Numbered from the stretch's first letter, positions 38,805-54,136 are shown. The stretch: 64,000 nucleotides of DNA from Tenericutes bacterium RIFOXYA12_FULL_35_10 (GCA_001830045.1 MIDA01000008.1:6499-70498), one strand, 5' to 3'. Program-made: numbers and translations. The notes: generated by a model not told the origin, from the letters alone.

Positions 38805-39322
38805 TCCTCAACGGATTTAGATGGACTCCGTTTATCTCTGGGTACAAGAGGGTTAAATCCTCTTTTTAAATCTCTCATTAAAATGAAAATAATAATAAAT
38901 ACACCTAGGATTGAACCAATTAAGACATATCCACTACCTAAAATGAGCCCTGTCATTGCAGTAAACCAAATGGTTGCTGCTGTAGTAATTCCACGAATGA
39001 CTTGTTGCTGGTCTTTTAGAATGACTCCAGCCCCAATAAAACCTATCCCTGTGACAACCTGTGCAATCACACGCTGTCCTTCTGGATCAATAAGAACGCC
39101 TGTTGACTGTAAAAATATCTGATGTTCAAACATCAAGCGTTGCATAATCGCAATACCTGCACTTGCCATCGCAACCAAAATATGTGAGGAAAGTCCTGCC
39201 GCCTTTCCCACATTTTGTCTTTCAAGTCCCACAAATGCACCCACAGCAAACGCGATGACAAGTGGAACCACAATTTTAAATAAAATATCTAATAGTGATA
39301 AATCTAAATCATAAAAATACAT
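38801..39322 (-). CDS. MgtC/SapB family membrane protein
   Basis: VGLERQ...AAGLSSH, RVIAQVVTGIGFIGAGVI, GITTAATIW. Confidence 0.9.
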   Translation of the reverse strand: MYFYDLDLSLLDILFKIVVPLVIAFAVGAFVGLERQNVGKAAGLSSHILVAMASAGIAIMQRLMFEHQIFLQSTGVLIDPEGQRVIAQVVTGIGFIGAGVILKDQQQVIRGITTAATIWFTAMTGLILGSGYVLIGSILGVFIIIFILMRDLKRGFNPLVPRDKRSPSKSVEE

Positions 39323-39381
39323 ATATAATTCTCCCTCCTTCGTGTTGCCACGACTGACTACCTTATCTCATCATAAGGTCT

Positions 39382-40257
39382 TTATTCTTTTTTGGTTTTT
39401 GGATTTCGTTCTCTATAAAGTGTATTAAAGTGAACTTTATCCTCACCCTTTTGATAGCCTAAAATGGCTTCTAAATTGACATTTTGTCCTGCATTAAAAA
39501 TATGTGCATCGACATTGGGATTAATCTTTCTTAATCCAGCAATCATCTCTTTGATTTCTCTTCGTTTTGAAGATGTTTTTTCAGCAACCACGGTGCATCC
39601 ACAGTTCATCGCTTGTATACCTGATCTCACGGTCCATCTAATGATATCTTTTTCTTTAATAAACATCATCGGACGAATGAGTTCAATATCTTCAAAGTTT
39701 TCAGCTTTAATTTTAGGAACCATGGTTTTAAATGTTCCGTTATAGAAAACATTTAAAAGTGTGGTTTCAATGACATCATCAAAATGATGTCCTAAAGCTA
39801 ATTTATTACAACCTAATTCTTTAGCTGCATTATAGAGGAATCCTCTGCGCATGCGAGCACACATGTAACATGGGTTTTCGCTCGCTATTTTTTGAACAAC
39901 ACTGAAAACATCAGAGTTTCTTATCGTTAGAGGAATATTTAAATACTTACAATTGGTTTCAAGTAACTCTAAATTGACATCTCTAAAACCTGGATTCATC
40001 GACAAGAAGACAAGTTCAAACGGAATTTTATTATGTCTTTTAAGTTCTTGAAATAGTTTAGCCATGAGAAGACTATCTTTACCGCCAGATATACCAATCG
40101 CTATTTTATCACCTGGTTCAACCAGTTCATATTCGTTAATCGCTTGAACGAATGGTCTAAAAATATCTTTTCGATACGTTTTTGTTAGGCTTTTTTCAAT
40201 ATCATCGAGTGGTAACTTAGGTGTTTCAACCAAAATGGTTTGACATGAAGATGACAT
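39382..40257 (-). CDS. ttcA: TtcA-family tRNA thiolation protein (PP-loop)
   Basis: SGGKDS, CYMCARMRRG, LGHHFDD, IRP, CGC. Start moved to 40257. Confidence 0.85.
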   Translation of the reverse strand: MSSSCQTILVETPKLPLDDIEKSLTKTYRKDIFRPFVQAINEYELVEPGDKIAIGISGGKDSLLMAKLFQELKRHNKIPFELVFLSMNPGFRDVNLELLETNCKYLNIPLTIRNSDVFSVVQKIASENPCYMCARMRRGFLYNAAKELGCNKLALGHHFDDVIETTLLNVFYNGTFKTMVPKIKAENFEDIELIRPMMFIKEKDIIRWTVRSGIQAMNCGCTVVAEKTSSKRREIKEMIAGLRKINPNVDAHIFNAGQNVNLEAILGYQKGEDKVHFNTLYRERNPKTKKE

Positions 40258-40258
40258 A

Positions 40259-41200
40259 TTAAACTCCGTTCTTATAGGTTTGAACGAGATTTTCAGCATC
40301 TTTAACAAACTGATCGAGTTGTTCCCATGATTCTAATTTACAGCCTGCAGCTTTTGCGTGTCCGCCGCCCTGGTAATGGTTTGCAAGCTTGTCAATATTA
40401 GGGCCGGATGAGCGTAAGCGAATCCGAATTTCATTGGGGTATTCCATAAAGAGTGCCCAAACTGGATAACCTTCAATACCACCAATCAAGCCGACGTTAG
40501 ATGCTGCTTGTTCATCTGTGACATTATATTTTTCAATCACATCACGCGTCATCTTAATATAAACAAATCCCTTTGCAGTCACAAAATTTGAATATACATA
40601 TCCCTTTAAAGCAATCATTTCTAAAGATTCTTTAGAAAGCATTTGATCGATATATTCAACATCGACACCTTTTTCAATGAGTAGTCCTGCAAGTTGATGC
40701 GTTAACTGAGAAACTCCTCTAAACCGAAAACGTCCTGTATCTGTAACAATCCCTGTGTAAAGTGCGATCGCACCTTCTTGGGTGAGTTTAAGTTCTTTTT
40801 TAAACTTGTAATAAAAGTAAGTTATCATTTGTGCACAAGACGGAAACGTTGTGTCAACCCATCTTAAATCACCATAATTATCCACTGGAATGTGATGATC
40901 GATTTTAATGATTTCTTGTCCTAACGTGTAACGTGAATCTGAAATACGGTCTTTCACTGCTGTATCAACAACAATGGATAGCGCACCTTGGTATACATCA
41001 TCTGTGATTTGATCAACTTTACCAACAAAATCGACAAAATCACTTCTTTCTCCAACCACATAAACTTTTTTATCTGGAAATGAGGACGTGATGATATTTT
41101 TTAAGCCAAATTGTGCCCCATAACAGTCACCATCTGGTCTTTTATGACCATGGATAATAATGGTCTCATATTGTTTTATTTTATTTAATATTCTTTGCAT
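40259..41200 (-). CDS. DHH/DHHA1 phosphoesterase (NrnA-like), copy 2
   Basis: HKRPDGDCYG, VDTA, KIDHH, DTGRF, GGGHAKAAG. Start 41200. Confidence 0.93.
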   Translation of the reverse strand: MQRILNKIKQYETIIIHGHKRPDGDCYGAQFGLKNIITSSFPDKKVYVVGERSDFVDFVGKVDQITDDVYQGALSIVVDTAVKDRISDSRYTLGQEIIKIDHHIPVDNYGDLRWVDTTFPSCAQMITYFYYKFKKELKLTQEGAIALYTGIVTDTGRFRFRGVSQLTHQLAGLLIEKGVDVEYIDQMLSKESLEMIALKGYVYSNFVTAKGFVYIKMTRDVIEKYNVTDEQAASNVGLIGGIEGYPVWALFMEYPNEIRIRLRSSGPNIDKLANHYQGGGHAKAAGCKLESWEQLDQFVKDAENLVQTYKNGV

Positions 41201-42140
41201 TTTCTTTTGCCCTTTCATCTAAATCCTTTAGTACTAAATCTACTTCATTCCAATCTTTCAAGCTTGCTCCGCATGCTTGATTGTGACCACCGCCACCAAA
41301 TTTTTTTGCAATATCAACAATCGTAATCCCGCGAGCTCTAAATTCACCCACAATTAAATTGTTTTCAACATCTTCGGTAAAATTTGCCCAAATGGGTATT
41401 TCCTTTATACCTGCCATCTGATTAACCATACCTCTAGAGATGGCTTGAAATTCTAAACCACTCTTTTGAATGAGTTCAGCATCATTCTTGCGATATGCAA
41501 CACCATTTTCGGTGATTTCAAACGATGAGAATAGATTTTTTGTTAATCTTTTTTGAAGTGGTTCGGTGTAAATATAATCATAGAAATCTTGCACAGATGG
41601 TTCAAACTTCGTAATGTAAGATGCGAGTTCAAATGTCTTTGATGCGTTATTTAAATATAAGAAACGCCCCGTATCTGTAACCATACCTCCATAGAGGTAA
41701 GTTGCGGCTTCTGGTGTGACTTTTAAATTCATTTCCTTAATGATATCGACAATCATTTCAGAAGCAGATGCAAACGTTGGATCTTTATAGAAAAGTGTAA
41801 CGTTTTCGACATCGGTATCATTTTGATGGTGATCGATGATGATCACATCTGTTGCAAGTTTATAACGATCGTCACTGATTAATCGCGACACTGATACATC
41901 GGTAATAATCGCTAACGCATTGATGTAATAAGCATCAGGAATAACATCCATTTTCGCAAGATAAACCATATCATTGGAATCCCCAACGACATAAACCCTC
42001 TTATCGGGATAATTTTCTTTAATGGTCAAATATAAACCATACTGTGATCCAATCGCATCCATATCTGGTCTTAAATGACGATGGATAATGATTTGATCAT
42101 AAGATTCAATCAAATGGAGAATGTTACGTTTGATATTCAT
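41181..42140 (-). CDS. DHH/DHHA1 phosphoesterase (NrnA-like), copy 1
   Basis: HLRPDMDAIG, TDVS, IDHH, DTGRF, GGGGHNQACG. Start 42140. Confidence 0.93.
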   Translation of the reverse strand: MNIKRNILHLIESYDQIIIHRHLRPDMDAIGSQYGLYLTIKENYPDKRVYVVGDSNDMVYLAKMDVIPDAYYINALAIITDVSVSRLISDDRYKLATDVIIIDHHQNDTDVENVTLFYKDPTFASASEMIVDIIKEMNLKVTPEAATYLYGGMVTDTGRFLYLNNASKTFELASYITKFEPSVQDFYDYIYTEPLQKRLTKNLFSSFEITENGVAYRKNDAELIQKSGLEFQAISRGMVNQMAGIKEIPIWANFTEDVENNLIVGEFRARGITIVDIAKKFGGGGHNQACGASLKDWNEVDLVLKDLDERAKENAKNIK

Positions 42141-42231
42141 AGTGACCTTATACCTTTCTAATGTATTATGATAGTATATCATAGATTATGAAAAAAAACT
42201 ATGATATCTTATGTTGTCGTTCATTCGATAC

Positions 42232-42262
42232 AAAAAGCACCAGGATAGACCACGGTGCTTTT
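42232..42262. terminator. Intrinsic terminator after the nuclease gene
   Basis: AAAAAGCACC-loop-GGTGCTTTT. Confidence 0.8.
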
Positions 42263-42278
42263 CTGATCAACATTTAAC

Positions 42279-43484
42279 TTATGCCCAAGGAAGGTCTAAA
42301 TGAGGGCTCCAAACGGGTTTTTCTGTCGTTAATGTATTTGAATCATAGTTCCAATCCGGTGATTTTTCACCGCTTGGATTTGCTGGATAACCCTTTAATC
42401 CCCAACCATTTAGTCTTGCACGATATTCTGCAAATCTTAAGAATGTTAAGTAGGGAACATCTTTATAATTTAAAGCTAAATCATATGCATTGTAGGTTGA
42501 ACCAACATCTTCAGATAAACCTTCTGATACAATTAAAAATTGTGATAGATAACCATTGATCCATACTAAACCTAAGTAGCGACCATAACCTTCGTTTAGT
42601 GCATATCCAGGTATCGATTGAACATGAATCTCTTTTTGGTTAGCATCATTGAGTAAGAATTCTTTATTGTATTTACTTGCTACATAACCCCATGGTTCTG
42701 CAGAAACGTGAGATCCGTTTACTTCCGCTGTGTTTAAGTAGAAATAGCGAACTGATCCACCACCAAAACCATTGTTAGCATTAAAGTATGCTGTATCACC
42801 GTCTGCAATACCTGATACGGATGTCAATACTGCACCGCCACCACCAATATTTTCATTACTAGAATCTACGTAAGGCATATCTTTATAGCGTTGTTCTAAA
42901 CGAGGACCCGCATATAAATCATCTAGTGTTTTAATTTCATAATCATCATTTTTAATGTACTGAAAAACTTCAGGTAGATAGTAGATATAATCAAATGTGT
43001 TAAATGTTTTTGATGGTTTATAATCTTCGACAAGTCCTAGACGAATCATAGTTAAATCGTTATAGATATCAACATCAGATCCAACTTGTCCAATGTAATC
43101 AACAACTGCTTTTTTATACATCAGTTCAATGCCATCATTACCATTAAAAGGTAAAACTGCATCTGGGTTTGAAAAATCAAACTGTGATGTAATCGTTGTA
43201 TTGGTTGAATTACCACTACCAATTAAGAAATAATCATTTGCATTAATGGTTCCTTCAAGTTGAATTGTTTGAGATACTTCCAATGACCCATTAGTATAAA
43301 AATTAAAATGATAATCTTTTAGATCTATATCTTCATCTGAAGGATTATAGAGTTCAATCATGTTATCTGCTTGAACCGTTGTCTCAAAAATTTTGGAGAT
43401 GACGATAGGGGATTCTTTTTGTGTACACGCAGATACAAGAAGACCGATCATCAATAAAACAAAAATCATACTTATTTTTTTCAT
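42279..43484 (-). CDS. Lipoprotein: lamin-tail domain plus thermonuclease (SNase) domain
   Basis: Lipobox VSA-C. LTD (IELYNPSDEDIDLKDY...FNGNDGIEL). SNase motifs IADGDT, VRYFYLNTAE, EPWG, YGRYLGLVW. Confidence 0.85.
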   Translation of the reverse strand: MKKISMIFVLLMIGLLVSACTQKESPIVISKIFETTVQADNMIELYNPSDEDIDLKDYHFNFYTNGSLEVSQTIQLEGTINANDYFLIGSGNSTNTTITSQFDFSNPDAVLPFNGNDGIELMYKKAVVDYIGQVGSDVDIYNDLTMIRLGLVEDYKPSKTFNTFDYIYYLPEVFQYIKNDDYEIKTLDDLYAGPRLEQRYKDMPYVDSSNENIGGGGAVLTSVSGIADGDTAYFNANNGFGGGSVRYFYLNTAEVNGSHVSAEPWGYVASKYNKEFLLNDANQKEIHVQSIPGYALNEGYGRYLGLVWINGYLSQFLIVSEGLSEDVGSTYNAYDLALNYKDVPYLTFLRFAEYRARLNGWGLKGYPANPSGEKSPDWNYDSNTLTTEKPVWSPHLDLPWA

Positions 43485-43547
43485 TATTCTTCACCTCATA
43501 TTAAAGTAACATATGTCAATCATGTTTAAATTAAACACGTCTTATGT

Positions 43548-44444
43548 TCATGCTGAATGGTTTAATCTCTTTTGTCTTAGATGTCTTAAAACATGTTTGT
43601 GGAAAAAGAGAAAATACGTTAAGGGTAATACAATAGCAAGTTCGATTAAAATGTTTTTAACATAAATCGTATTGTAGCTATCAAGCTTTTCTAACCACAT
43701 TGAATCATAGTAGATCAATGGATTTTCGTTTAAGTTTGTTGTTCCAAACTGAGTAACTAAATCTAGGTTTTCATCCGTTAGCTGTGCGATATCACGTGAA
43801 TACGAAGCACTAAACATATCAGATGGCGTCGTTTCAATAAGTAAGCTATTTGCTAAAACGACAAGTGTTAATTTTTCACCCGATGTGATCTCATACAAAA
43901 TGGAAATTGTTTGAAGTTGAGCTTGTCCTGTCGGTGTATCAAGAAGTTCTTGGTTGATGATAATCATACGCCCTGTATCATCAAAGAGCGGTGTTGTGTA
44001 TTCCATAAATACACGTTTATTGTTATTTTCAACATCAAGATCTCTGTCAAATACAAACTCAATATACATCATATGATAATCATTGTCATCTTTTTTTGCT
44101 AAGTTATCTTCGATGTTTAAATCTGTGATTAAAAATGCAATTTGATTGATCGCTTGATTATCTTTAAAAGTAACAAATGGATAAATCGAAAAAGTTAATT
44201 TTAATTCATTATCTTCAAATGTTTGTTCATAGAGTGGTGTATTTAAAACGTAAGCATCAGACTTATCATGGAGGTTAGCGATTGAAGTTGCAGCAACCAA
44301 AGCTTGATTGTTTTCCACTAGTTCTACTTCATGATCTTCTAAAAAATTAACGACCTTCGAAGCTTCGCTAAAAGAGGCAACCACAAAGGTGAGTGCTCCA
44401 ACAAAAAAGATATAAGCAATTCTCCAAATCCATGCTGATGCCAT
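43548..44444 (-). CDS. Bitopic/2-TM membrane protein with acidic extracellular beta-rich domain, unknown function
   Basis: N-terminal and C-terminal hydrophobic helices with a basic cytoplasmic tail; no recognisable motif. Confidence 0.8.
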   Translation of the reverse strand: MASAWIWRIAYIFFVGALTFVVASFSEASKVVNFLEDHEVELVENNQALVAATSIANLHDKSDAYVLNTPLYEQTFEDNELKLTFSIYPFVTFKDNQAINQIAFLITDLNIEDNLAKKDDNDYHMMYIEFVFDRDLDVENNNKRVFMEYTTPLFDDTGRMIIINQELLDTPTGQAQLQTISILYEITSGEKLTLVVLANSLLIETTPSDMFSASYSRDIAQLTDENLDLVTQFGTTNLNENPLIYYDSMWLEKLDSYNTIYVKNILIELAIVLPLTYFLFFHKHVLRHLRQKRLNHSA

Positions 44445-44483
44445 AAATCTAACTTCCTTTAATTCAGATTTTTAAACATGAGT

Positions 44484-44513
44484 GAAAGAGCACGGCATCT
44501 GCCATGCTCTTTT
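44484..44513. terminator. Hairpin/terminator after the 921-aa lipoprotein gene
   Basis: GAAAGAGCA-CGGCATCTGCCA-TGCTCTTTTC. Confidence 0.7.
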
Positions 44514-44545
44514 CTTATACATGTTTGTTTTAAAACGATTGATAC

Positions 44546-47311
44546 TTATTCAGCTGCTGGAGTATGTGTGTGTGAACCTAAATAAGTAAATGTGTCTGCA
44601 TCATAAGCAGTCCATTGTGTTGGATCCCAAATGGTTGTACCATAAGCTACAGCTGCATTTCTAACAAGTGTATGTTCTGCTGTAGAATCTGTTCCAACTG
44701 CCCATGATGAACCTGGGTCAACACCAATGACACCAAATACATCAATGACTGTTTCTTCAGTACCATTTAACTTGATTAATGCAACTGCATCATCACCGTT
44801 AAAATATGTAATTGTAGAAGCAACGTCACCAACATTAATGATATCAGCTGCTGCTGAGCTATTGTAGATAACAAAGACTTCGCCTGGAGCTAATGTTCCA
44901 GATAAAACGATGTTATTACCATATGTTGTTGCACCATTTGAATAAAGTGCAACTTTGTAGTTTGCTAAGTCAACAGTTTGGTTTGTTGGGTTATAAATTT
45001 CAATGGCTTTATTATTGCTTGAACCTTCAATATATTCAGAAATGAATAATTCTGGATTTGGTTCAGCAAAAATAATTTCAACGACGAAAGTCTTTGTTAC
45101 AGTTTCAGTACCTTTAGTTAAAGTAGCTGTTAAACCAACTTCAACTGTACCATAAGTAGCAGGTAGTGTCACTGTGCCAGCAACTAAATCAATTAATGCA
45201 TTGTCAGCATCTTCTGAATCAGTAAATGTCCAAGCGATGGTAGAACCATTTGTACCAGCAACTGGTAAAGTGATTGTTCCATCTGCGTTGTATGATGTTA
45301 CGATTGTTAATGCTTTTGCATCTAAATTAACATAGTTTGCATCTGTTAATACAGGTGCAACGCCTGCAGCAATTTGATCACCATTGGTTAATGTTAATAA
45401 TGGGTTACCACTCGCCCAACCTAAGACTGCACCCGTAAAGTTGACATAGTCATCAACCTTAGTCGCTTGTAAGAAGGTTAAGTTAGCCAAAGTTACACGG
45501 CTATCCCACTTGAATTTAATGGTATTACCTGTTGTTTCATCAAGTAATGTCATTTCGATGTTACCATAGTTAGCATCTGTCCAAGCAGTAATCTTCATGT
45601 TTGTTAAGTTAACTCTTGTAGATTGATATGGAAGAAGTGTTGTTGCATTCCATTCAGTAACTGTTTGTAAATCAAACGCTACTGGTAATGTTGCTTCGCC
45701 TAAATCTTCAACGGTATAAGTTGTTAATTGCACGAGACCACCATATGCACCACGTGTACCAATTAAATCAACATTATGACCAATAAGTGCTTCTAAATCA
45801 GCAACTCCTGCATTATTAAATACAGAGATACCGCCTGTAGCGTCTTGAATAGCAATTGTCTTATTAGCGATGTAGCCAAGAACAACACCTTGAATTCTAA
45901 ATGTTCCTGATTCAGCTGCTCTAACGTTAGCGATTGTTGTTACTGGGTATTCACCTAATTTAACAACAAATTCTTTAACAACTGGAGCTAATGAACCATA
46001 AGAAATAGTTGCTGTTAAGCCAACATTAGCTTGTCTTCCAACTGGAACTGTAACTGCGCCCGTTGCTAAGTTAATTAAACTGTTGTCTGCATTTTCAGTA
46101 TTTGTAAATGTCCAAGCAATCGTTGTACCGTTTGCACCTGCAACTGGCAATTCTAATGTGCCATCTGCAAGCATAGCTTCTGGTAGGCTAACTGCATTTG
46201 AGTCAATATCTAATCTTTGTTGATCAGTTAAGACAGCTTCAATACCTTCTGGACCACCAACGTAGTAAATGGCAAATGCTTGGTTGTTAGAACGGTAAGT
46301 ATAAATGACAACATCGATTGTAACAGTAATGCCATCATATAAACGTAATGTTGCTAAGTCTTGTGTGTTATAGTAAACCATTAATCCACGAGCTGGAACG
46401 CCTGCTGAACCTGGAACCCATGCTTGTGTTGTGTCATAAGCAGTGTCTACGATATATGTGTTGTAGTTGCTTGTGTCACCTGGAATCATATAAACTTTAC
46501 CAGTAACGGTTGCATAAATTGATTCGAAGTTACCAGCTGATGCATCTGAACCTGCATATAAATGTTCTTCTGCAGTGACTAAAGCATCAATCTTTGTGTT
46601 AACACTTTCGATAACTTCTGCAGTTGGGTTAGCTGGAGTTGCAGTTGTTTGTTCAGTTGCAGTCCATTTTGTTAATTCCCAAATACCGAAATACCATTCA
46701 ATAGTTGCGTCGATTGTGTAAACTTTACCAATGACTAAGTTTTCTTGTGAACCACCATAAATTTGGATGATACCTGTACCATCGTAAGCGAATGATGCAT
46801 CTGAACCCTTAGCAAAAATCGTTAAGTTTTCTAAGCTAACTTGGTATGTGCCGTCATATTCTGGATCTGTTACTTCTAAAACGTCAGCAATTGTTTCAAT
46901 GACGATTTCTTCAACTTCATTTGCCTTAACTGTTAAGACAATTGACCAGTCCATGGTAAGATCTTTGGTTTCATCAAGTTCTGAAGCGATGGTTAATGTA
47001 ACGCTTAATGTAACATTGACGTTAGGTTCACCAAATGCTGGACGATTTACGGTAATAACTGCGAAACCATTATTTGCAGCACCTACTGTAACAACACCAG
47101 GATTGCTTGATTCCCAATCAGCTGTGACACCACCAACTAATGTTGTGGGCACTTCGAAACCACCGGTTATATTCGATGGGTCAGCGATAAGCGCATTAAG
47201 ACTGTCATAAGCAGTTTGTAGTTTTGCTTCAGCTGGATCTACTTTTTCTTTACAAGAAGCTAGTAAAAATCCAAATGCGACGACCGCGAGTAAAAGTAAT
47301 ACTTTTCTCAT
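44546..47311 (-). CDS. Large modular lipoprotein: (Ig-like, OB, OB) x2, Ig-like, C-terminal lamin-tail domain
   Basis: Lipobox LAS-C. Ig-like repeats LPVAG.NG.TIAWTF (two copies 882 nt apart plus a diverged N-terminal copy). OB-like segments (TIANVRAA...IQGVV...IQDATGGISVF). LTD LFISEYIEGSSNNKAIEIYNPT. No nuclease active site seen. Confidence 0.8.
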   Translation of the reverse strand: MRKVLLLLAVVAFGFLLASCKEKVDPAEAKLQTAYDSLNALIADPSNITGGFEVPTTLVGGVTADWESSNPGVVTVGAANNGFAVITVNRPAFGEPNVNVTLSVTLTIASELDETKDLTMDWSIVLTVKANEVEEIVIETIADVLEVTDPEYDGTYQVSLENLTIFAKGSDASFAYDGTGIIQIYGGSQENLVIGKVYTIDATIEWYFGIWELTKWTATEQTTATPANPTAEVIESVNTKIDALVTAEEHLYAGSDASAGNFESIYATVTGKVYMIPGDTSNYNTYIVDTAYDTTQAWVPGSAGVPARGLMVYYNTQDLATLRLYDGITVTIDVVIYTYRSNNQAFAIYYVGGPEGIEAVLTDQQRLDIDSNAVSLPEAMLADGTLELPVAGANGTTIAWTFTNTENADNSLINLATGAVTVPVGRQANVGLTATISYGSLAPVVKEFVVKLGEYPVTTIANVRAAESGTFRIQGVVLGYIANKTIAIQDATGGISVFNNAGVADLEALIGHNVDLIGTRGAYGGLVQLTTYTVEDLGEATLPVAFDLQTVTEWNATTLLPYQSTRVNLTNMKITAWTDANYGNIEMTLLDETTGNTIKFKWDSRVTLANLTFLQATKVDDYVNFTGAVLGWASGNPLLTLTNGDQIAAGVAPVLTDANYVNLDAKALTIVTSYNADGTITLPVAGTNGSTIAWTFTDSEDADNALIDLVAGTVTLPATYGTVEVGLTATLTKGTETVTKTFVVEIIFAEPNPELFISEYIEGSSNNKAIEIYNPTNQTVDLANYKVALYSNGATTYGNNIVLSGTLAPGEVFVIYNSSAAADIINVGDVASTITYFNGDDAVALIKLNGTEETVIDVFGVIGVDPGSSWAVGTDSTAEHTLVRNAAVAYGTTIWDPTQWTAYDADTFTYLGSHTHTPAAE

Positions 47312-47356
47312 TCCATTTCTCCTTTGTATTTTTTTATCTATATTATCATCACTATG

Positions 47357-48793
47357 TTAGTTGGTGATAAAGTCGAAACTCTTTTGATACTCTGAATCAA
47401 TGTAAGCTTGCAAAGCAGCATCATCTGCAGCATCAAACGCTAAAATCTTAACGAGTAATGCACCAACTTCTGTTCTTGTTTTAGAACTTAAGTTGAATAC
47501 AGAAGATGTAAAGAAGATGTCACCGTTATTTAAGAAGATTTCAATGGCTTCTTTAACGAGCTTATCTTGAGCTTGTTTCATGGTTGTAGGAACTGCAACC
47601 ACTGAATTCACATAATCAGTCCAAGCTTGTGTTTCATAAGCTGAATAACGGATTGGCGCATATCCTGAAGGAATACAGAATTGTGCTGATTTTTCTGGAG
47701 ATAACATGAATTTCGCGAATAACCAAGTTGCGATCATCTTTTGTTCATCACCTGAATTAAATAAATTGATGTTTGGTCCTTGTTGAATTTGATAACGATG
47801 CTCAGCATCATGTGCTGGAAGAGGTGCAACACCTGCACGGTATCCTGCATCAAAGACAGTTTGGCTCGCACCAATATATGCATAACGTGTACCACCTGTT
47901 GATCCGACATACATGTAGAGTTTTTCATTTGTCTTCATGATATCTGATGTATAAGCGTTACCGTTTAAGCTACGTGTTAACATTAAACCTCTATCAACCT
48001 TATCCTTGAAATAGGTTACCATTTCTTTAGATAGGTCATTGTTAAATTGAACTTCACCTTTACCGGTTGTTTCATTATAACCTGTATAAGGCGCATCCCA
48101 TTGTTTAGATGCTGTAATAAAGAGGTTATCTTCTGAATCGTAACCAAATGGAATCGCATTTGGTTCACGGAGTTTGATGTCTTCTGCAATCGCGAAAACT
48201 TCATCCCATGTGGTTGGTACATCGTAACCATGTTGTTCAAAATAAGTTGCATTGTAGAAGAATGCTTCACTTGATTTTGTAAATGGTAAAGATAAAATCG
48301 TACCAGCATTATCGTAACTTTGACCTTCTGCCCATAAACCTGGGAGGAAGTCTGCAACTTCTTCTTCAGTGTATCCAAGTGTTGGATGGCTGATGAAGTT
48401 GTTTAAAGCAAGTGGTGCTTTGGCTTGAGCATATCTAGCGATATGGTCAGGATAGCTTTCAGCGATGTCCGGTGCTGTACCCGCTGGAATTGCTAATGCA
48501 ATTTTATCTGCAAGTGCGCCGTAATCTGCCGCTGCTTTTTCTTCAATAACGGTAATATTAGGATAGATTGCCTCAAATTCTTCAATCCAATCTTGGACTA
48601 AACCTTGGCTATCTGCACCCATTCTATGCCAAAACTTGATCGTCACTTCTTTGGTGGTATCAAGTGTTGCTGTTTCTGGTAATTCATACCATTCAACGAG
48701 CTTTGCAGTTGCATCGCCACTGCGGTCACCACCACAGGAAGCTAGAAACAAGCCTGCAGTAAGTACTAATGCAATAAGTAAAATCTTTTTCAT
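47357..48793 (-). CDS. ABC transporter extracellular solute-binding lipoprotein (family 1)
   Basis: Lipobox LAS-C; IKFWH, PDIAESYPD, LSLPFTKSSEAFFYN, VPTTWDE, QGPNINLF, GYAP. Confidence 0.92.
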   Translation of the reverse strand: MKKILLIALVLTAGLFLASCGGDRSGDATAKLVEWYELPETATLDTTKEVTIKFWHRMGADSQGLVQDWIEEFEAIYPNITVIEEKAAADYGALADKIALAIPAGTAPDIAESYPDHIARYAQAKAPLALNNFISHPTLGYTEEEVADFLPGLWAEGQSYDNAGTILSLPFTKSSEAFFYNATYFEQHGYDVPTTWDEVFAIAEDIKLREPNAIPFGYDSEDNLFITASKQWDAPYTGYNETTGKGEVQFNNDLSKEMVTYFKDKVDRGLMLTRSLNGNAYTSDIMKTNEKLYMYVGSTGGTRYAYIGASQTVFDAGYRAGVAPLPAHDAEHRYQIQQGPNINLFNSGDEQKMIATWLFAKFMLSPEKSAQFCIPSGYAPIRYSAYETQAWTDYVNSVVAVPTTMKQAQDKLVKEAIEIFLNNGDIFFTSSVFNLSSKTRTEVGALLVKILAFDAADDAALQAYIDSEYQKSFDFITN

Positions 48794-48825
48794 ACGTTAC
48801 TCCTTCTTATCTAAATTTTTTAAAA

Positions 48826-49761
48826 TTATCCTTTAACGCCACTACGTGAGATACCGCTCATGATGTACTTTCTAAAGAAAACGAAGAGTAATAAGAGAGG
48901 AACCGTCACGATGACTGTTGCGGCCATCTGGTAGTTAATGAGTACGCGACCTGAACCGGTTGCAGCTTGATCTGTGAATGAACTTCTTAACCATGTTGTG
49001 ACTAACTTGAATTTCTCGTTAGCAACAATGTCTGGCCAAATGAAGGCATTCCATGCACCCATGAGTTTTAAAATCACGATGGTAACAATACTTGATTTAG
49101 CGATTGGAACCATCACTCTCCATAAATACTTATAGTCCGCACATCCATCCACTTTAGCTGCATAATACAGTTCATTTGGAATTTGTTTGAATGTTTGTCT
49201 GAGTAAGTAAATATGGAAGATCGAAACTAAGAACGGTATGATCATCGCTAAATATGAACCAGTACCTGGATCATTGACCCAACCTAAACGGGAAACTGTA
49301 ATATAGTTTGAGATGACCATCATTTCACCGGGAATCATCATGGTTGCAAGTAATATCGTGAAAATGAGTTCTTTTCCTTTAAAGTTAAGTCTTGCTAATG
49401 CGAAAGCAACTAAAATCGAGAAGAATGTTCCACCAATTGTTGAGAAGAACGCAACGATGCTTGTATTGAGTAGATATCTTGAGAAATTAATGCTTCCTTG
49501 TTGTGAAGATGAATACAAGAACACGTTCACATAGTTTTTTGGAGAAAAAACTTTGGGAAATAAACTTGTATTCAGCGAGTTTAAAACTTCATTACTACTT
49601 TGGAAAGAAACGTTTAACATCCAGTAGAATGGCACAATCACGATGAAGGCCATAAACATTAAGAATGCATATGTTCCAAATTTACCAAGGAATTGAGCTG
49701 TTCTTTGGGCTTTAAGTGTTTTATTTTCGCTGTAATCAGCATACTTTAACATTTTATCCAT
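48826..49761 (-). CDS. CUT1 ABC transporter permease (MalG-like)
   Basis: EAA loop IPNELYYAAKVDGC; start 49761 or 49767 (SD AAGGAGG). Confidence 0.93.
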   Translation of the reverse strand: MDKMLKYADYSENKTLKAQRTAQFLGKFGTYAFLMFMAFIVIVPFYWMLNVSFQSSNEVLNSLNTSLFPKVFSPKNYVNVFLYSSSQQGSINFSRYLLNTSIVAFFSTIGGTFFSILVAFALARLNFKGKELIFTILLATMMIPGEMMVISNYITVSRLGWVNDPGTGSYLAMIIPFLVSIFHIYLLRQTFKQIPNELYYAAKVDGCADYKYLWRVMVPIAKSSIVTIVILKLMGAWNAFIWPDIVANEKFKLVTTWLRSSFTDQAATGSGRVLINYQMAATVIVTVPLLLLFVFFRKYIMSGISRSGVKG

Positions 49762-49774
49762 TGTCATCTCCTCC

Positions 49775-50701
49775 TTAGTAGTGAACTTTCTTCTTGCTGA
49801 CATAGAGGTTTATGGCAGTAAAGATTAAGATAATAATAAATAACATCACGGCAGCAGCTGCACCTCTTGAATAATAAGAGACGTAGTTTGAATCAAGGCC
49901 AGCTAAACCAATTTTGTCATACACATAAGCAACTGCTGTCCATCTTTCACGGTCTAAAGTACGACCTGTTGTACCAGCAACAGCTAACACAGATTCATAG
50001 GCTTTAAATCCACCAATGAAGGATGTGATAATAATGTAACTAATAAGTGGTGATAGCAGAGGAATGGTAATACGCGTTAAGATACGTTTAGGCGGTGTTG
50101 CGTCAATCTTTGCAGCATCATAATATTGCTTAGAAATGTTTTGTAGACCGCCAATAAACACTAAAATCTTAAAGGGTAATGCACTCCATATAATATACAT
50201 AAGAACGACTAACATCCAGTGATCTCTCGTTGCAGTAACACCAACCCAGTCAATGGAGGTTTGGAATAAAGTGTTAATTAAACCTTCAGGCATAATACCT
50301 GATGTCAGTGGATGTGAGAACATAACACTGAAGACCATCCCAATCGCAAGCGTATTGGTCACATATGGCATAAAGAAGATGGTTTGGAAAATCTTTTGTA
50401 ACGGTTTAATGGAATTCAATCCAACTGCAATCAATAATGCAAGAACTGTTGAGATTGGAACCGAAATAAAGACCATTAATAATGTATTACCAATCGATTG
50501 AATAAAGATTGGATCTTTGAAGATTGCTTGGTAAGCCATGAAGTCAAAGAACATACCAAAGCTGTCATCAATCGCATTATATTGTGAGAATAATGAAATC
50601 AAAATCGTTTTAAAAAGTGGGTAAAATGTAAAAACAGTTAATAGAAATAGCGGAATCGCCATGTATAACCAGGCTTTATAATCTTTTTTATACTCAAGCA
50701 T
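49775..50701 (-). CDS. CUT1 ABC transporter permease (MalF-like)
   Basis: EAA loop ISKQYYDAAKIDA...ITIPLLSP; TAATG coupling to the ATPase. Confidence 0.93.
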   Translation of the reverse strand: MLEYKKDYKAWLYMAIPLFLLTVFTFYPLFKTILISLFSQYNAIDDSFGMFFDFMAYQAIFKDPIFIQSIGNTLLMVFISVPISTVLALLIAVGLNSIKPLQKIFQTIFFMPYVTNTLAIGMVFSVMFSHPLTSGIMPEGLINTLFQTSIDWVGVTATRDHWMLVVLMYIIWSALPFKILVFIGGLQNISKQYYDAAKIDATPPKRILTRITIPLLSPLISYIIITSFIGGFKAYESVLAVAGTTGRTLDRERWTAVAYVYDKIGLAGLDSNYVSYYSRGAAAAVMLFIIILIFTAINLYVSKKKVHY

Positions 50702-52335
50702 TAGGCAAGTCTCCGACCTGTTTCTTTATCGAAAACAAATGTTTTGTTTGCTTTTAAGTTGAAACGAACGGTTTTTTGATTTTGGAGTGCTGTTTCAACA
50801 TCATGAAGAATGATTCTAAATGAGGGTGTGATGGCACTATCGTGAGATGAAACTAACGATAAATCGCGTCCAATCGTTTCAATATACTGAGAAGTTATTT
50901 CAAGAGCTCCGCTTGCGCTCATTTCATAACCCTCAGGTCTTACACCAACAATAACGTCACAGTTTGCTTCTTTTTTAAGTTTATCTGATTTAAATACCAC
51001 TTGATTGTTAATCAATATTTGAGCATCTTTTAAAGTCGCATTATATAAACCAATGGGTGGTGTTCCTAAGAACTTAGCAACGAATAAGTTTTCTGGTTGA
51101 TCATAAACAGCTTGTGGTGCACCTTTTTGTTGTTCTTCACCAAAATTCATTAAGACGATTTCATCAGAAATAGACATCGCTTCTTCTTGGTCATGTGTAA
51201 CGAAAATCGTTGTAATACCTGTTTCACGTTGAATACGTTTGATTTCTTCTCTTGTTTGTAGGCGAAGACGTGCATCTAAGTTTGATAGTGGTTCGTCTAA
51301 GAGAAGTACTCTTGGTTTTTTAACAAGAGCGCGAGCGATCGCAACGCGTTGTTGTTGACCACCTGAAAGTTGTGCTGGCTTCTTTTCTAATTGGTCTTCG
51401 ATACCAACAAGTCTAGCCATTTCGACGACGCGTTCTTCCATGATTGCTTTATAATTAGCAGTTTTAGCTTCTATGACACCACGAACACTTGCAGGAATAG
51501 AAATTTCCATTTCTTTTGCTAAACGATCAGGTTGTGTGCCAAATTGTTTTTCGATTTCTTTTTTAACAATCATTGCTTTATCTTCGACAACTTGATAATT
51601 TTGCTTCATTTTAGGAAGTAGTTCGTTGATGTTTGCTGGAGTGATGGCTTGTTTTTCTTTGACATATTCTGCAGCAAATGATGCTAATTGGTTATTTAAA
51701 TCATTTTTTAAAGTTGAAAGATTTTGTTTGAATGCTTCTTTGATGGATTTAGCATCTTTTTGATCCTGTTTTGCAGCAATAAGATCTTGCTTATGCTGTG
51801 CTTTACGAACAAATACAGCATTATGATTTGTTGCTTTCGCATCATTTTCTAAACGACGATATTTATTTTTAAGTGCATCAAGTTTATCTGCAAATTCATA
51901 GTAAACTGCAGCTTCTTTTGGACTTTCCATGAAATAAGCTTTACGATAAGCTTCATCGATTGAACGTTTCTTTAAACCCATGTTTTCGAGTGGGAATAAA
52001 ATATTTTTTCTAACGGTCATGTGAGGATAGAGTGCGTAGTTTTGGAAAACTAAACCAATTCCTCTTTTTTCAGGTGATAATTCAGTGACATCTTCATCAC
52101 CAAAGAAAATTTTACCTGTGGTTGGTGCGAGTAAACCCGCAATCATATAAAGCGTTGTTGATTTACCACAACCAGATGGCCCAAGTAAACCGATCAACTT
52201 ACCTGATGGAATAACGACGTCAAAGTCATCGACAGCTTTTGCATCTTTTCCACCTTTTTTATCATAGAAAATCTTTGTCAAGTTTTCTAATCTAATTGAT
52301 AATCCCTTTTGTTGCACATTTTTGATATCTTCCAT
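50701..52335 (-). CDS. CUT1 ABC ATPase (MalK/UgpC-like) with a 174-aa helical insertion
   Basis: [19 protein letters not shown], insertion at 51963-51442, [27 protein letters not shown]. Start 52335 (SD AAGGAG). Confidence 0.93.
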
Positions 52336-52432
52336 TGTATACTCCTTTATTTCTATCAAAGCTATTGATTTTAGGGGTTATAGCTTTGCACATTTTTGTG
52401 TTTAAAAAACGAAAAAGACTCCTATGATTGAT

Positions 52433-52522
52433 TCATAAGAATTTCTTATTTTTAGATTCAAAAAAACGCTGATCATTCGTGCCACCTTTGGATATACTCA
52501 TATCAAAAAAAATGATCAACAT
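52433..52522 (-). CDS. Candidate 29-aa leader peptide / small protein MLIIFFDMSISKGGTNDQRFFESKNKKFL
   Basis: SD GAGGTGA 4 nt before the ATG; directly behind promoter P2; stop lies inside a terminator-like hairpin. Confidence 0.45.
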   Translation of the reverse strand: MLIIFFDMSISKGGTNDQRFFESKNKKFL

Positions 52523-52543
52523 TATCTCACCTCAACATAACCT

Positions 52544-52572
52544 ATTATATAATAATAACCTCGAAAAGACAA
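52544..52572 (-). promoter_or_regulatory. Promoter P2 of the ABC/nuclease locus
   Basis: TTGTCT (52572-52567), 17 bp, TATAAT (52549-52544). Confidence 0.6.
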
Positions 52573-52627
52573 CTTATAATTGCCTTACATCAACCTAAAT
52601 TTACTTTATTTTAGCAAAAGAAAATGA

Positions 52628-52681
52628 TGTAAGCGTTTTTAGAGGTAATTACATTATAGTATGACGTGTCACCTTTGTCAA
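52628..52681 (-). promoter_or_regulatory. Consensus promoter P1 with downstream cre-like operator
   Basis: TTGACA (52681-52676), 17 bp, TATAAT (52658-52653). TGTAAGCGTTTTTA at 52628-52641, about +5 to +18. Confidence 0.8.
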
Positions 52682-52724
52682 TGAAAGAATGCTATATTTT
52701 TTTCAAATCCCTTTCTTTATAAAG

Positions 52725-52746
52725 AAAGAGGCCCTGAGGACCTCTT
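52725..52746 (-). terminator. Intrinsic terminator after asnS
   Basis: Minus strand AAGAGGTCC-TCA-GGGCCTCTT then TCTTT. Confidence 0.7.
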
Positions 52747-54136
52747 AAAATTCACAATTTTTTGGTGTGCGTGGGAATGGAATGACATCTCTGATGTTTT
52801 CAACACCTGATAGATACATGATAAGTCTTTCAAAACCCATACCAAATCCTGCATGTACACAACCGCCATAACGACGTAGATCTAAATACCATTCAAGATC
52901 TTTTTGTGGTACATGAAGTTCTTCCATGCGCTTGATCAAATAGTCAAGTCTTTCTTCTCTTTGTGAACCGCCAACAAGTTCTCCTGAGCCTGGAACAAGT
53001 AGATCCATTGCTGCAACCGTCTTTCCATCATCATTTAAACGCATGTAGAACGCTTTGATATCTTTGGGCCAATCAATGACGAATACAGGTGACTTGAAGT
53101 GCTTTTCAGTTAAGTATTTCTCATGTTCGGTGTTAATATCTTGTCCGTGTTGTGGTTTATTTTCAAATTTCACACCACTCGAAAGAAGAATGTCGATCGC
53201 TTCCTTATGTGTGACTCTTGCAAAGGGTGAGTTTAAAACGTTTAACAAGCGATTTGTTAACCCTGGTTCAACGAACTTATCGAAGAATACCATTTCTTCT
53301 GGAAGTTTTTCAAATACGTATCGGATTAAGTATTTCACCATATCTTCAACAACTTCCATGTTTTTGGCTAAATCAGCAAATGCCATTTCGGGTTCAATCA
53401 TCCAGAACTCAGAAGCATGTCTTAATGTATTTGAGTTTTCTGCTCTAAATGTTGGTCCAAACGTATAGACGTTCTTAAATGCTAGTGCAAATGTTTCAGC
53501 TTCAAGTTGCCCGGTTACGGTTAAGTTTGTGGCTTTTCCAAAGAAATCCTTCTTAAAATCGATAGTTTTTTCTTCAGTGAGTGGCATTTTATCTAAAGGT
53601 AGCGTTGTAACACTAAACATTTGTCCAGCACCTTCACCATCGTTACCTGTAATGATGGGTGTATGTGTGTAGACGAAACCTCTTGATTGAAAAAACTCAT
53701 GAATGCCCATCGCAGCAACTGAACGCAATCTAAAAACAGCGTGAAAAAGATTGGTTCTAGCTCTTAAATGAGCTACCTCTCTTAAAAACTCACGTGTATG
53801 GCGTTTGGGTTGAATGGGATAATCTTCAGGTGAATCACCTAAAAGTTCAATATGAGAAGCTTTGACTTCAAAAGGTTGTTTTGCATCCGGTGTTAAAATG
53901 AGTTCTCCTTTGACTAAAATCGAACTTCCAACTCTCAGTTTTTGAACTTCTTTGAAGTTATCTATTTTTTGTTCTTCGTAAACTACTTGAAGTGTTTCAA
54001 AAAATGTACCATCGTGAAAGTTGATAAAACCGAACTCTTTTTGAGCACGATGATTTCTAACCCACCCATAAAGTTCGATCGTTTGTCCTAATTGTTTGTC
54101 TGTTTCTCTGTAAATCTGTTTGACTGTAGTTTCCAT
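52745..54136 (-). CDS. asnS: Asparaginyl-tRNA synthetase
   Basis: [56 protein letters not shown]. Confidence 0.97.

Follow-up and report, generated by a model that had tools for sequence, protein, structure and literature searches.

Domain organization of the 921-aa lipoprotein

The window analyzed here, a stretch of 64,000 nucleotides (nt) from Tenericutes bacterium RIFOXYA12_FULL_35_10 (GCA_001830045.1, MIDA01000008.1:6499-70498) with a G+C content of about 35%, carries on its minus strand a gene for a lipoprotein of 921 amino acids (aa). The original prediction, made from the sequence alone, saw in this protein a non-catalytic, extracellular DNA-capturing arm composed of RPA-like tandem OB folds, immunoglobulin-like (Ig) spacers and a distal lamin-tail domain (LTD), with the catalytic function split off to the neighbouring gene. 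The gene and the domains of its product are listed below, with positions counted from the first nucleotide of the window.

44546-47311, minus strand: coding sequence of the 921-aa lipoprotein, ATG start, stop codon included (open reading frame list)
47252-47311, minus strand: signal peptide and lipobox L-A-S-C, residues 1-20 (read from the sequence)
46916-47251, minus strand: helix and Ig1 (aBig_2-like), residues 21-132 (Pfam; DSSP beta sandwich 52-128; homologous to Ig3)
46634-46915, minus strand: OB1, residues 133-226, the most conserved domain (five-strand barrel 157-220; homologous to OB3)
46238-46633, minus strand: OB2 and helical insert, residues 227-358 (predicted-structure strands)
45947-46237, minus strand: Ig2 (aBig_2), residues 359-455, containing the DNA repeat copy 46044-46168 (Pfam; repeat; homologous to Ig3)
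45677-45946, minus strand: OB3, residues 456-545, poorly conserved (canonical OB strand order 470-539, helix 504-507)
45356-45676, minus strand: OB4, residues 546-652, poorly conserved (predicted-structure strands)
45065-45355, minus strand: Ig3 (aBig_2), residues 653-749, containing the DNA repeat copy 45162-45286 (best Pfam aBig_2 stretch, 662-746)
44549-45064, minus strand: LTD and C-terminal extension, residues 750-921 (PF00932; NF033680; similarity to the LTD of a neighbouring lipoprotein)

The N-terminus, MRKVLLLLAVVAFGFLLASC, comprises a short basic part (MRK), a hydrophobic stretch and the lipobox L-A-S-C20, which conforms to the pattern [LVI][ASTVI][GAS]C at the end of a signal peptide as judged by reading the sequence. 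In line with the lipobox claimed originally, C20 is at least 95% conserved across 44 full-length homologues, and the mature protein would be lipid-anchored.

Pfam recognizes two families in the protein, aBig_2 (PF20578; 89.5 bits over three stretches, gathering cut-off 27) and LTD (PF00932; 67.9 bits, residues 751-860, gathering cut-off 34.3), and no further family, catalytic ones included. The EEP domain (PF03372) finds no match in Pfam, and neither Pfam nor NCBIfam returns an SNase, HNH or 5'-nucleotidase domain, in agreement with the earlier failure to see such motifs. The sole NCBIfam match is the ExeM profile NF033680, of which positions 23-175 of 884, corresponding to the LTD region, align with an E value of 5.4e-30. 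This supports the view that the LTD is of the secreted-nuclease type; with 104 bits against a family cut-off of 1300 bits, the protein is not a full-length ExeM. Its LTD is also related to that of an SNase-like lipoprotein encoded nearby (29% identity, E 2e-11). When the whole-protein profile was compared with the sequences of the PDB, the only find was the Ig domain of arabinanase AbnA (5ho0, residues 548-641), which matches Ig3 with E 3.4e-14; no solved enzyme was found.

Predicted structure and OB folds

An AlphaFold2 model built on the alignment of the 44 full-length homologues has a mean predicted local distance difference test score (pLDDT) of 90.5, with values below 50 at residues 1-4 and 19-21. 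Its order is signal peptide (1-20), then Ig1-OB1-OB2-Ig2-OB3-OB4-Ig3-LTD, with the LTD fold at 756-903 in the secondary-structure string, and domain parsing with AlphaFold2 and Foldseek thus bears out the proposed architecture of (Ig-OB-OB) twice, a third Ig and a C-terminal LTD. Four barrels, at approximately 157-220, 232-350, 470-539 and 566-640, lie between Ig-like sandwiches, each running through strands 1 to 3, a short helix and strands 4 and 5. If an OB fold is defined as a closed barrel of five beta strands in which a helix usually separates strands 3 and 4, all four units qualify on the predicted (not solved) structure. In OB2 the model places strands at 232-234, 265-275, 285-288, 310-312, 329-340 and 345-350 and a helix at 319-323; OB4 is modelled with strands at 566-579, 585-591 and 596-602, a helix at 612-616 and strands at 622-633 and 636-640.

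Compared with the PDB by Foldseek, the full model retrieves tandem-OB nucleic-acid binders, the AbnA Ig domain aside: p204 HINab with double-stranded DNA (5z7d, 2.5e-8), Teb1 AB (3u58, 2e-7, probability 1.00, 207 aligned columns) and p202 HIN1 (4l5q, 9e-6, target template-modelling (TM) score 0.38), as well as CST (8d0b), POT1 and LEF-3. For OB1-OB2 modelled alone (pLDDT 92.1, predicted TM score 0.88), OB proteins fill nearly all of the top 50 places, weakly, with a best E of 1.4e-3 (Cdc13); examples are AIM2 HIN (3rn5, TM 0.44), Sulfolobus SSB (TM 0.53), archaeal RPA and YgiW. The RPA70 DBD-A/B-like tandem arrangement foreseen originally is therefore present at the level of the fold, through the Teb1 AB match, and did not hold at the level of sequence, where no Pfam OB family was found.

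Among the homologues, P0070, P0104 and P0025 reach PF01336 (tRNA_anti-codon) at 33-38 bits (cut-off 27). The match in P0070 covers its residues 451-518, the place of OB3 as judged by position, not by alignment, and an OB match of the PF01336/PF04076 type at E ≤0.01 is seen in just three of the 44 full-length relatives. Longer homologues of about 1200 aa add BOF-type (PF04076) OBs.

In the predicted structure all residues belong to Ig, OB or LTD folds, which confirms that the chain has no spare globular region that could hide an enzyme. The possibility of a cryptic catalytic domain was accordingly rejected, as none emerged from Pfam, NCBIfam, parsing of the model or the OB1-OB2 Foldseek search. 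We also discarded a degenerate SNase as an explanation of OB2, since SNase does not appear in the top 50 of the latter search.

Internal duplication

The duplication of an Ig segment reported in the original prediction stands out clearly in the DNA. Positions 45162-45286 and 46044-46168, 882 nt apart, are 73% identical, with 91 matches in 125 positions against 62.9 ± 1.8 (maximum 69) in 30 codon shuffles, and the copies fall in Ig3 (residues 676-717) and Ig2 (residues 382-423), respectively. Profile-profile comparison with hhalign pairs Ig2 with Ig3 (99.8%), Ig1 with Ig3 (97%), OB1 with OB3 (96.2%, E 2e-9) and Ig1+OB1 with Ig2+OB3 (96.9%), and detects no homology between OB2 and OB4. A BLASTP comparison of the protein with itself gives no internal matches, so that the duplication is visible solely by profile-profile comparison and in the DNA. 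These similarities support an old duplication of an Ig-OB unit.

Family and conservation

A word-indexed search yielded at least 139 relatives, all from Acholeplasmataceae or from metagenome-assembled genomes of unclassified Bacilli/Bacillota, and annotated at most as 'immunoglobulin-like domain-containing'. None of the 120 homologues among the matches listed carries a catalytic (nuclease) Pfam domain. Their lengths range from about 625 to about 1370 aa, with distant forms of up to 1645 aa, the number of domains being modular. Screening 1.8 billion representatives with OB1-OB2 by HMMER returned just 67 proteins at E ≤0.001. Eight distant carriers of this pair were scanned; they are aBig_2-rich surface proteins, none with a catalytic domain. 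In P0169 an OB1-OB2-like module is fused to dockerin, Flg_new and SBP_bac_8 domains, and in P0155 to cohesin, dockerin and aBig_2 domains; from these fusions, the module appears to be used outside wall-less bacteria on surface structures assembled through cohesin and dockerin.

Conservation is distributed very unevenly along the chain. With a threshold of at least 95% across the 44 homologues, Ig1-OB1-OB2-Ig2 has 83 conserved positions and OB3-OB4 has 4. OB1 contributes 21 of them, including Y176-D-G-T-G180 and W206-Y-x-G-x-W-E212, and OB2 contributes 28, including Y313, Y314, T338, R340 and Y350, while OB3 has 4 and OB4 none. With a lipid anchor at the N-terminus, the conserved half would lie close to the membrane and the variable half distal to it. 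The conserved aromatic residues W206, Y207, W211, Y313, Y314 and Y350 are located in the hairpins formed by strands 4 and 5.

The surrounding gene cluster

All genes from 52359 down to 40259 are on the minus strand. Besides the 921-aa gene, the cluster comprises the following features.

52653-52681, minus strand: putative promoter-like TTGACA-17-TATAAT upstream of the ATPase gene (12/12 match to the sigma-70-type consensus)
50701-52359, minus strand: ABC ATPase, 552 aa (Pfam ABC_tran)
48826-50701, minus strand: two ABC permeases, 48826-49803 and 49775-50701 (open reading frames; BPD_transp_1 in the orthologues of locus L001; conserved order)
47357-48793, minus strand: SBP_bac_8 lipoprotein, 478 aa, the substrate-binding protein (SBP), immediately upstream of the 921-aa gene (Pfam 5.6e-37)
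44488-44509, minus strand: terminator-like hairpin just 3' of the 921-aa stop codon (9-bp G+C-rich stem, fold -24.6 kcal/mol, z -6.4)
43548-44444, minus strand: mem298, a 298-aa membrane protein, immediately downstream of the 921-aa gene (hydrophobic N- and C-terminal segments)
42279-43484, minus strand: lipoprotein with LTD and SNase-like domain, 401 aa, likely nuclease (LTD 3.3e-11; NucI 1.2e-4)
40259-42182, minus strand: two tandem DHH/DHHA1 (NrnA-like) phosphoesterases without signal peptide (Pfam DHH and DHHA1 in both)

In the ATPase, profile positions 2-136 (of 137) of ABC_tran are spread over residues 44-358, with about 165 charged, helix-rich residues inserted between the Walker A/Q-loop part and the LSGGQ signature. 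At the C-terminus of the ATPase, a weak match to OB_MalK (432-476; E 0.0018) scores 19.5 bits against a cut-off of 27. The best PDB relatives of the SBP are the 7c16/7c0f series (7c0f-7c1b, E 2e-16), followed by UgpB proteins, and not sugar binders. This series is probably the dinucleotide (U3G)-binding protein of Thermus thermophilus, a T. thermophilus protein that binds U3G having reportedly been described by Chandravanshi and colleagues in 2021. According to PMC12718374, the phosphate-ligand branch of CUT1 comprises the U3G binder, the GPC binder and UgpB.

In the 401-aa lipoprotein the SNase domain match is weak (E 0.0048, below the Pfam cut-off). Aligned with Staphylococcus aureus nuclease, the domain keeps D21, R35, T41, E43 and R87, and D40 is changed to N, so that Asn replaces the Ca2+ ligand Asp40; with an isoelectric point (pI) of 4.4 the lipoprotein also differs from the classical, basic SNases. 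The genes of the two DHH/DHHA1 paralogues overlap by 38 nt, and the second of them is overlapped by 50 nt by the next open reading frame (39382-40308), whose TTG start may be miscalled. For mem298 there was no Pfam, NCBIfam or PDB match and no literature lead. Pfam detects no glycoside hydrolase in the cluster.

Conserved linkage to an ABC importer

The related loci, 34 from species-representative genomes and 2 from an exact-protein look-up, were searched with the window's proteins; L012, from Acholeplasma laidlawii, holds an orthologous cluster. In 36 of 36 the homologue directly follows the series ATPase-permease-permease-SBP. Where the fetched flank reaches far enough, it contains the genes for mem298 and the LTD-SNase lipoprotein in the large majority of cases, usually directly downstream. 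Exceptions are L031 and L032, which lack a detectable mem298, the nuclease of L031 being encoded on the other strand at a distance of about 7.6 kb; L019 and Haploplasma modicum (L033), in which the mem298/LTD-SNase pair is inverted and located upstream of the ATPase gene; and L022, with the nuclease gene directly upstream of the ATPase gene. The rearrangements in L019, L022 and L033 indicate that the nuclease pair moves as a unit yet stays with the importer. Most loci, the distant L038 among them, also have the two DHH genes next to the cluster.

As synteny inside one family can be mere inheritance, distant carriers of OB1-OB2, with 28-33% identity to the 921-aa protein in L038 and L039/L040, were examined as well. 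P0138 (L038, GCA_018400755.1 1056-10539; 1645 aa, 33% identity) is directly followed by genes for an LTD-SNase, a protein of about 270 aa and two DHH proteins. In the case of P0142 (L039/L040; 1516 aa, 31% identity), an SBP gene lies upstream, and genes for an LTD-SNase and a protein of about 270 aa lie downstream. No link between mem298 and these proteins of about 270 aa, which occupy the same place, was detected by tblastn. In L038 the DHH proteins are 68-75% identical to those of the window, compared with 33% for the large protein with its five copies of aBig_2, which shows that the 921-aa surface protein evolves much faster than its partners.

In P0169 (L037 3162-6158) an SBP domain is naturally fused to the OB1-OB2-like module; this SBP domain is 26% identical to the window's SBP over 393 residues (E 2e-42), and the genomic context of P0169 is uninformative, the contig being short. 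Given the 36/36 synteny, this fusion and transcript contigs ending at the hairpin (see below), the 921-aa protein is tied more tightly to the importer and its SBP than to the nuclease two genes away. The original idea of a partnership with the nuclease is modified accordingly: a likely nuclease is indeed part of the cluster, while the immediate neighbour is mem298, and the closer tie is with the ABC importer. Pairing of the protein with the nuclease through their LTDs was rejected as a universal mechanism, half of the listed homologues having no LTD; in Acholeplasma hippikon, the one LTD-less case examined, the neighbouring nuclease retains its LTD.

Transcription in groundwater samples

Groundwater metagenomes contain the exact sequence of window positions 38500-53500, and so do metatranscriptomes from those studies (runs X9, X14, X21 and X22). 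One metatranscriptome contig of 3077 nt spans 44507-47583, that is the whole 921-aa gene and 226 nt at the 3' end of the SBP gene, and its end coincides with the hairpin at 44509-44488. Judged by assembler depth, a crude measure, the 921-aa gene reaches the highest value in the cluster (20.7), with 7.5 for SBP, 7.1 for ATPase, about 4 for the permeases, 2-4 for the DHH genes and 0 for the mem298 and SNase genes. Such uneven depth argues against DNA carry-over. Just 5-7% of the words of the nuclease region are present in any RNA run, and in a second metatranscriptome sample the ATPase, SBP and 921-aa genes are represented by fragments of low depth.

In agreement with the synteny, these depths place the 921-aa gene in the transcription unit of the importer. 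The promoter-like site and the hairpin likely delimit a unit running from the ATPase gene to the 921-aa gene without the nuclease, and the nuclease pair appears to form a separate, differently regulated one. The 921-aa gene may thus give rise to a major surface transcript in situ.

Function of the lipoprotein

Taken together, the parts of the locus point to degradation of nucleic acids at the surface, import of short phosphodiesters and finishing in the cytoplasm. We tentatively favour a reading in which the 921-aa protein is a lipid-anchored, non-enzymatic accessory of such a nucleic-acid-scavenging system in Acholeplasmataceae and related wall-less Bacilli. Nucleic-acid binding by the protein is itself inferred from its domain types.

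The proposed sequence of events is as follows. The protein would be exported and anchored via its N-terminal lipid, as the lipobox suggests, and its eight-domain chain Ig1-OB1-OB2-Ig2-OB3-OB4-Ig3-LTD would, according to the predicted structure, project from the membrane. The conserved proximal half, Ig1-OB1-OB2-Ig2, is proposed to work beside the SBP of the adjacent importer, given the invariant gene adjacency, the shared transcription and the naturally occurring fusion between this OB pair and a related SBP. In the variable distal half, OB3-OB4-Ig3-LTD, the modules (a PF01336-like OB3 in relatives, OB4, an optional LTD or extra BOF) are of the kinds seen on secreted nucleases. That half would capture extracellular DNA or RNA, whole or as fragments; as the protein is acidic, divalent cations or base stacking might mediate the contact. 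Cleavage of the polymer would fall to the LTD-SNase lipoprotein, in which the catalytic residues are mostly conserved. The SBP, which resembles UgpB and the putative dinucleotide binder, and the ABC permeases would then import short phosphodiester products, and the two cytoplasmic NrnA-like DHH/DHHA1 enzymes would complete the breakdown to mononucleotides, the 921-aa protein presumably contributing no catalysis of its own. Classical products of SNase are 3'-mono- and dinucleotides, and characterized NrnA-like enzymes degrade very short oligonucleotides.

A more specific version of this reading, which we regard as possible and yet rather doubtful, makes the protein a dedicated non-catalytic nucleic-acid receptor coupled to a di- or oligonucleotide ABC importer, whose acidic OBs bind through bridging divalent cations or stacking and whose proximal OB pair passes fragments on to the SBP. 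By analogy, such a receptor would be the OB-fold counterpart of the surface glycan-binding proteins of polysaccharide-utilization systems.

A number of observations weigh against nucleic acid as the ligand. The main one is charge. Classical OBs that bind single-stranded DNA rely on basic and aromatic residues; the 921-aa protein has 37 K+R versus 106 D+E and a pI of 4.06, each domain is acidic in all 44 aligned members (mean net charge -11 for OB1 and -14 for the LTD), and R340 is the sole near-invariant basic residue in the four OBs. This acidity lowers confidence in nucleic-acid binding. It does not exclude it, because the other surface proteins of the cluster, the nuclease among them, are acidic too (SBP, LTD-SNase and mem298, pI 4.4-4.6), and the nuclease, if active, has to bind DNA. 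Secondly, the OB assignment has no counterpart in sequence families: the four isolated OB segments match no OB family in Pfam at E values up to 10, PF01336 and PF04076 included, and profiles of OB1-OB2 and OB3-OB4 find nothing significant among all PDB sequences (best E 0.2-0.9); the LysRS anticodon domain and the N-terminal part of 9sf8, a protein with an EEP domain, are among these insignificant matches. The OB fold as such does not predict the ligand, because OBs also bind sugars and proteins, and the conserved Y, W, D, E, N and T residues would equally fit a sugar or protein interface. Thirdly, the LTD is present in 60 and missing in 60 of the 120 homologues among the matches listed and is thus not essential to the family. 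In ExeM, too, the LTD is dispensable for DNA degradation, the OB region being essential for activity (PMC6085458), and by this analogy an optional LTD fits. Finally, the importer is of the CUT1 carbohydrate-type family, the nuclease is barely transcribed where the 921-aa gene is abundant, and synteny within one family could partly reflect shared ancestry.

Some of these points fit a protein scaffold, in which OB1-OB2 docks the SBP, permeases, mem298 or nuclease and so holds surface components together, or keeps them at a distance from the wall-less membrane, without binding nucleic acid. The conserved half is the membrane-proximal one, strong negative charge speaks against binding of a polyanion, OB folds commonly bind proteins, and the SBP-OB fusion with the fixed adjacency to the SBP gene suits a protein-protein partnership. 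However, the presumed partners are equally acidic, so that charge offers no help for pairing, and a scaffold leaves unexplained why the distal modules are of secreted-nuclease types. On balance we consider it unlikely, the first among the alternatives.

Less likely again is an arm that captures another substrate, either a sugar or a phosphodiester such as glycerophosphodiesters or teichoic-acid fragments, with OB and aBig_2 domains acting like carbohydrate-binding modules. The CUT1 type of the importer would suit such a ligand, as would the resemblance of the SBP to UgpB and sugar binders, the occurrence of aBig_2 in a GH43 arabinanase, the acidic surface with its conserved aromatic and acidic or polar residues, and the cohesin and dockerin modules on distant relatives. 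Yet across distant lineages the cluster retains two NrnA-like genes and a lipoprotein of SNase type whose catalytic residues are mostly conserved, it is devoid of glycoside hydrolases, and the LTD is of the ExeM-nuclease type.

We find it improbable, to a slightly greater degree still, that the protein is an abundant, fast-evolving surface coat or adhesin that mediates attachment, for instance to particles or matrices rich in extracellular DNA, or shields the membrane, with no direct role in import. Its transcript depth, its rapid divergence relative to the DHH proteins and its modular domain number, with forms of 625 to 1645 aa, are what one would expect of such a protein; a free adhesin, on the other hand, is not expected to keep its linkage, whereas the place after the SBP gene is invariant and recurs in distant relatives, and both an SBP fusion and a transcript contig shared with the SBP gene exist. 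Least likely by far is a cryptic enzyme, the OB-like barrel being a degenerate or novel nuclease or phosphodiesterase with an active site at D177-G-T-G180, E212 and R340: invariant residues, among them one Arg and many acidic and aromatic ones, do occur in OB1-OB2, and SNase itself has an OB-like barrel, but no catalytic family is found by Pfam or NCBIfam, no SNase or other enzyme active-site domain appears in the OB1-OB2 Foldseek top 50, and there is no significant sequence match to any solved enzyme.

Comparison with known systems

The nucleic-acid-scavenging accessory favoured here resembles several described systems in part. ExeM of Shewanella oneidensis and Xds of Vibrio cholerae are likewise envelope-associated and have LTD and OB regions; their LTD is N-terminal and they possess an EEP catalytic domain, whereas the 921-aa protein lacks the latter and has a C-terminal, distal LTD, four OBs, three aBig_2 domains and a lipid anchor. 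YhcR of Bacillus subtilis is a wall-anchored nuclease of the order OB-OB-SNase-5'-nucleotidase. The likeness lies in tandem OBs on a surface protein concerned, in the 921-aa protein presumably, with extracellular nucleic acid; PF01336, the type of OB in question, is a family that homologues of the 921-aa protein reach at the position of OB3. The 921-aa chain itself has no PF01336 match and no SNase or 5'-nucleotidase, the SNase being a separate lipoprotein. Tests for the catalytic domains that define ExeM, Xds and YhcR found none, which places the protein outside these families, LTD and OB modules being what it has in common with them. It belongs to aBig_2 and LTD at the domain level and to the OB fold at the structural level.

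Among the eukaryotic tandem-OB proteins, the best structural matches of the OB pairs are the HIN-200 proteins (p204, p202, AIM2, IFI16), Teb1/RPA70 DBD-A/B, CST and POT1. These are intracellular and have basic clefts, in contrast to the predicted extracellular location, uniform acidity and undetectable sequence similarity of the 921-aa protein. The surface glycan-binding lipoproteins of polysaccharide-utilization systems are non-catalytic, multi-domain proteins that capture polymer and are encoded beside a transporter and a surface hydrolase. This is a functional analogy only, as folds, transporter types and presumed substrate differ.

In 'Candidatus Izemoplasmatales', a sister wall-less lineage, 'DNA-degradation loci' combine extracellular nucleases, phosphoesterases and ABC transporters with a large protein containing OB, nuclease and LTD domains (Wasmund et al. 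2021, PMC8289736). Likened by description, each of these loci has, as here, one large nucleic-acid-binding and LTD protein, which in Izemoplasmatales contains a nuclease domain, whereas the 921-aa protein is non-catalytic and its gene directly follows that of the SBP. Mycoplasma operons (MAG_5030-5070 of M. agalactiae, mhp379, MG_186) that encode a sugar-type ABC transporter together with lipoproteins of the SNase and SBP kinds were proposed, as a model, to import nucleotide precursors (PMC3585158). Compared with that publication by description only, the window has the same core, namely an SNase lipoprotein (42279-43484), an SBP lipoprotein (47357-48793) and a CUT1-type ABC transporter (48826-52359), and its gene content thus assigns the locus to the known mollicute kind that joins nuclease and ABC importer. 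The Mycoplasma operons differ in gene order and have no described counterpart of the 921-aa protein or mem298.

New here is an OB/Ig(/LTD) lipoprotein that is conserved, stands alone, carries no enzyme domain and is encoded between SBP and nuclease genes, one relative being naturally fused to an SBP. A literature search for aBig_2 or the 921-aa protein in Acholeplasma found no relevant publication, and matches to 'abiG2' were discarded, as they concern an unrelated toxin-antitoxin gene.

Mycoplasmas, acholeplasmas and Izemoplasma depend on or specialize in foreign nucleic acid, and in wall-less bacteria the route from polymer to imported nucleotide is known merely as a list of nucleases and presumed transporters. 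The family of the 921-aa protein would be a conserved, enzyme-less part of that route, one that out-transcribes the other genes of the cluster in the sampled transcripts. Should it bind another ligand, this would call for caution when the environmental genomics of DNA degraders takes OB and LTD modules as markers of nucleic-acid use. If nucleic-acid binding is true, OB and LTD modules can act as a stand-alone capture device, and the protein would provide a handle on the substrate of the 'sugar-type' ABC importer found beside surface nucleases across Mollicutes; if the 7c0f series is the Thermus dinucleotide binder, as we presume, this 'sugar' importer may carry dinucleotides.

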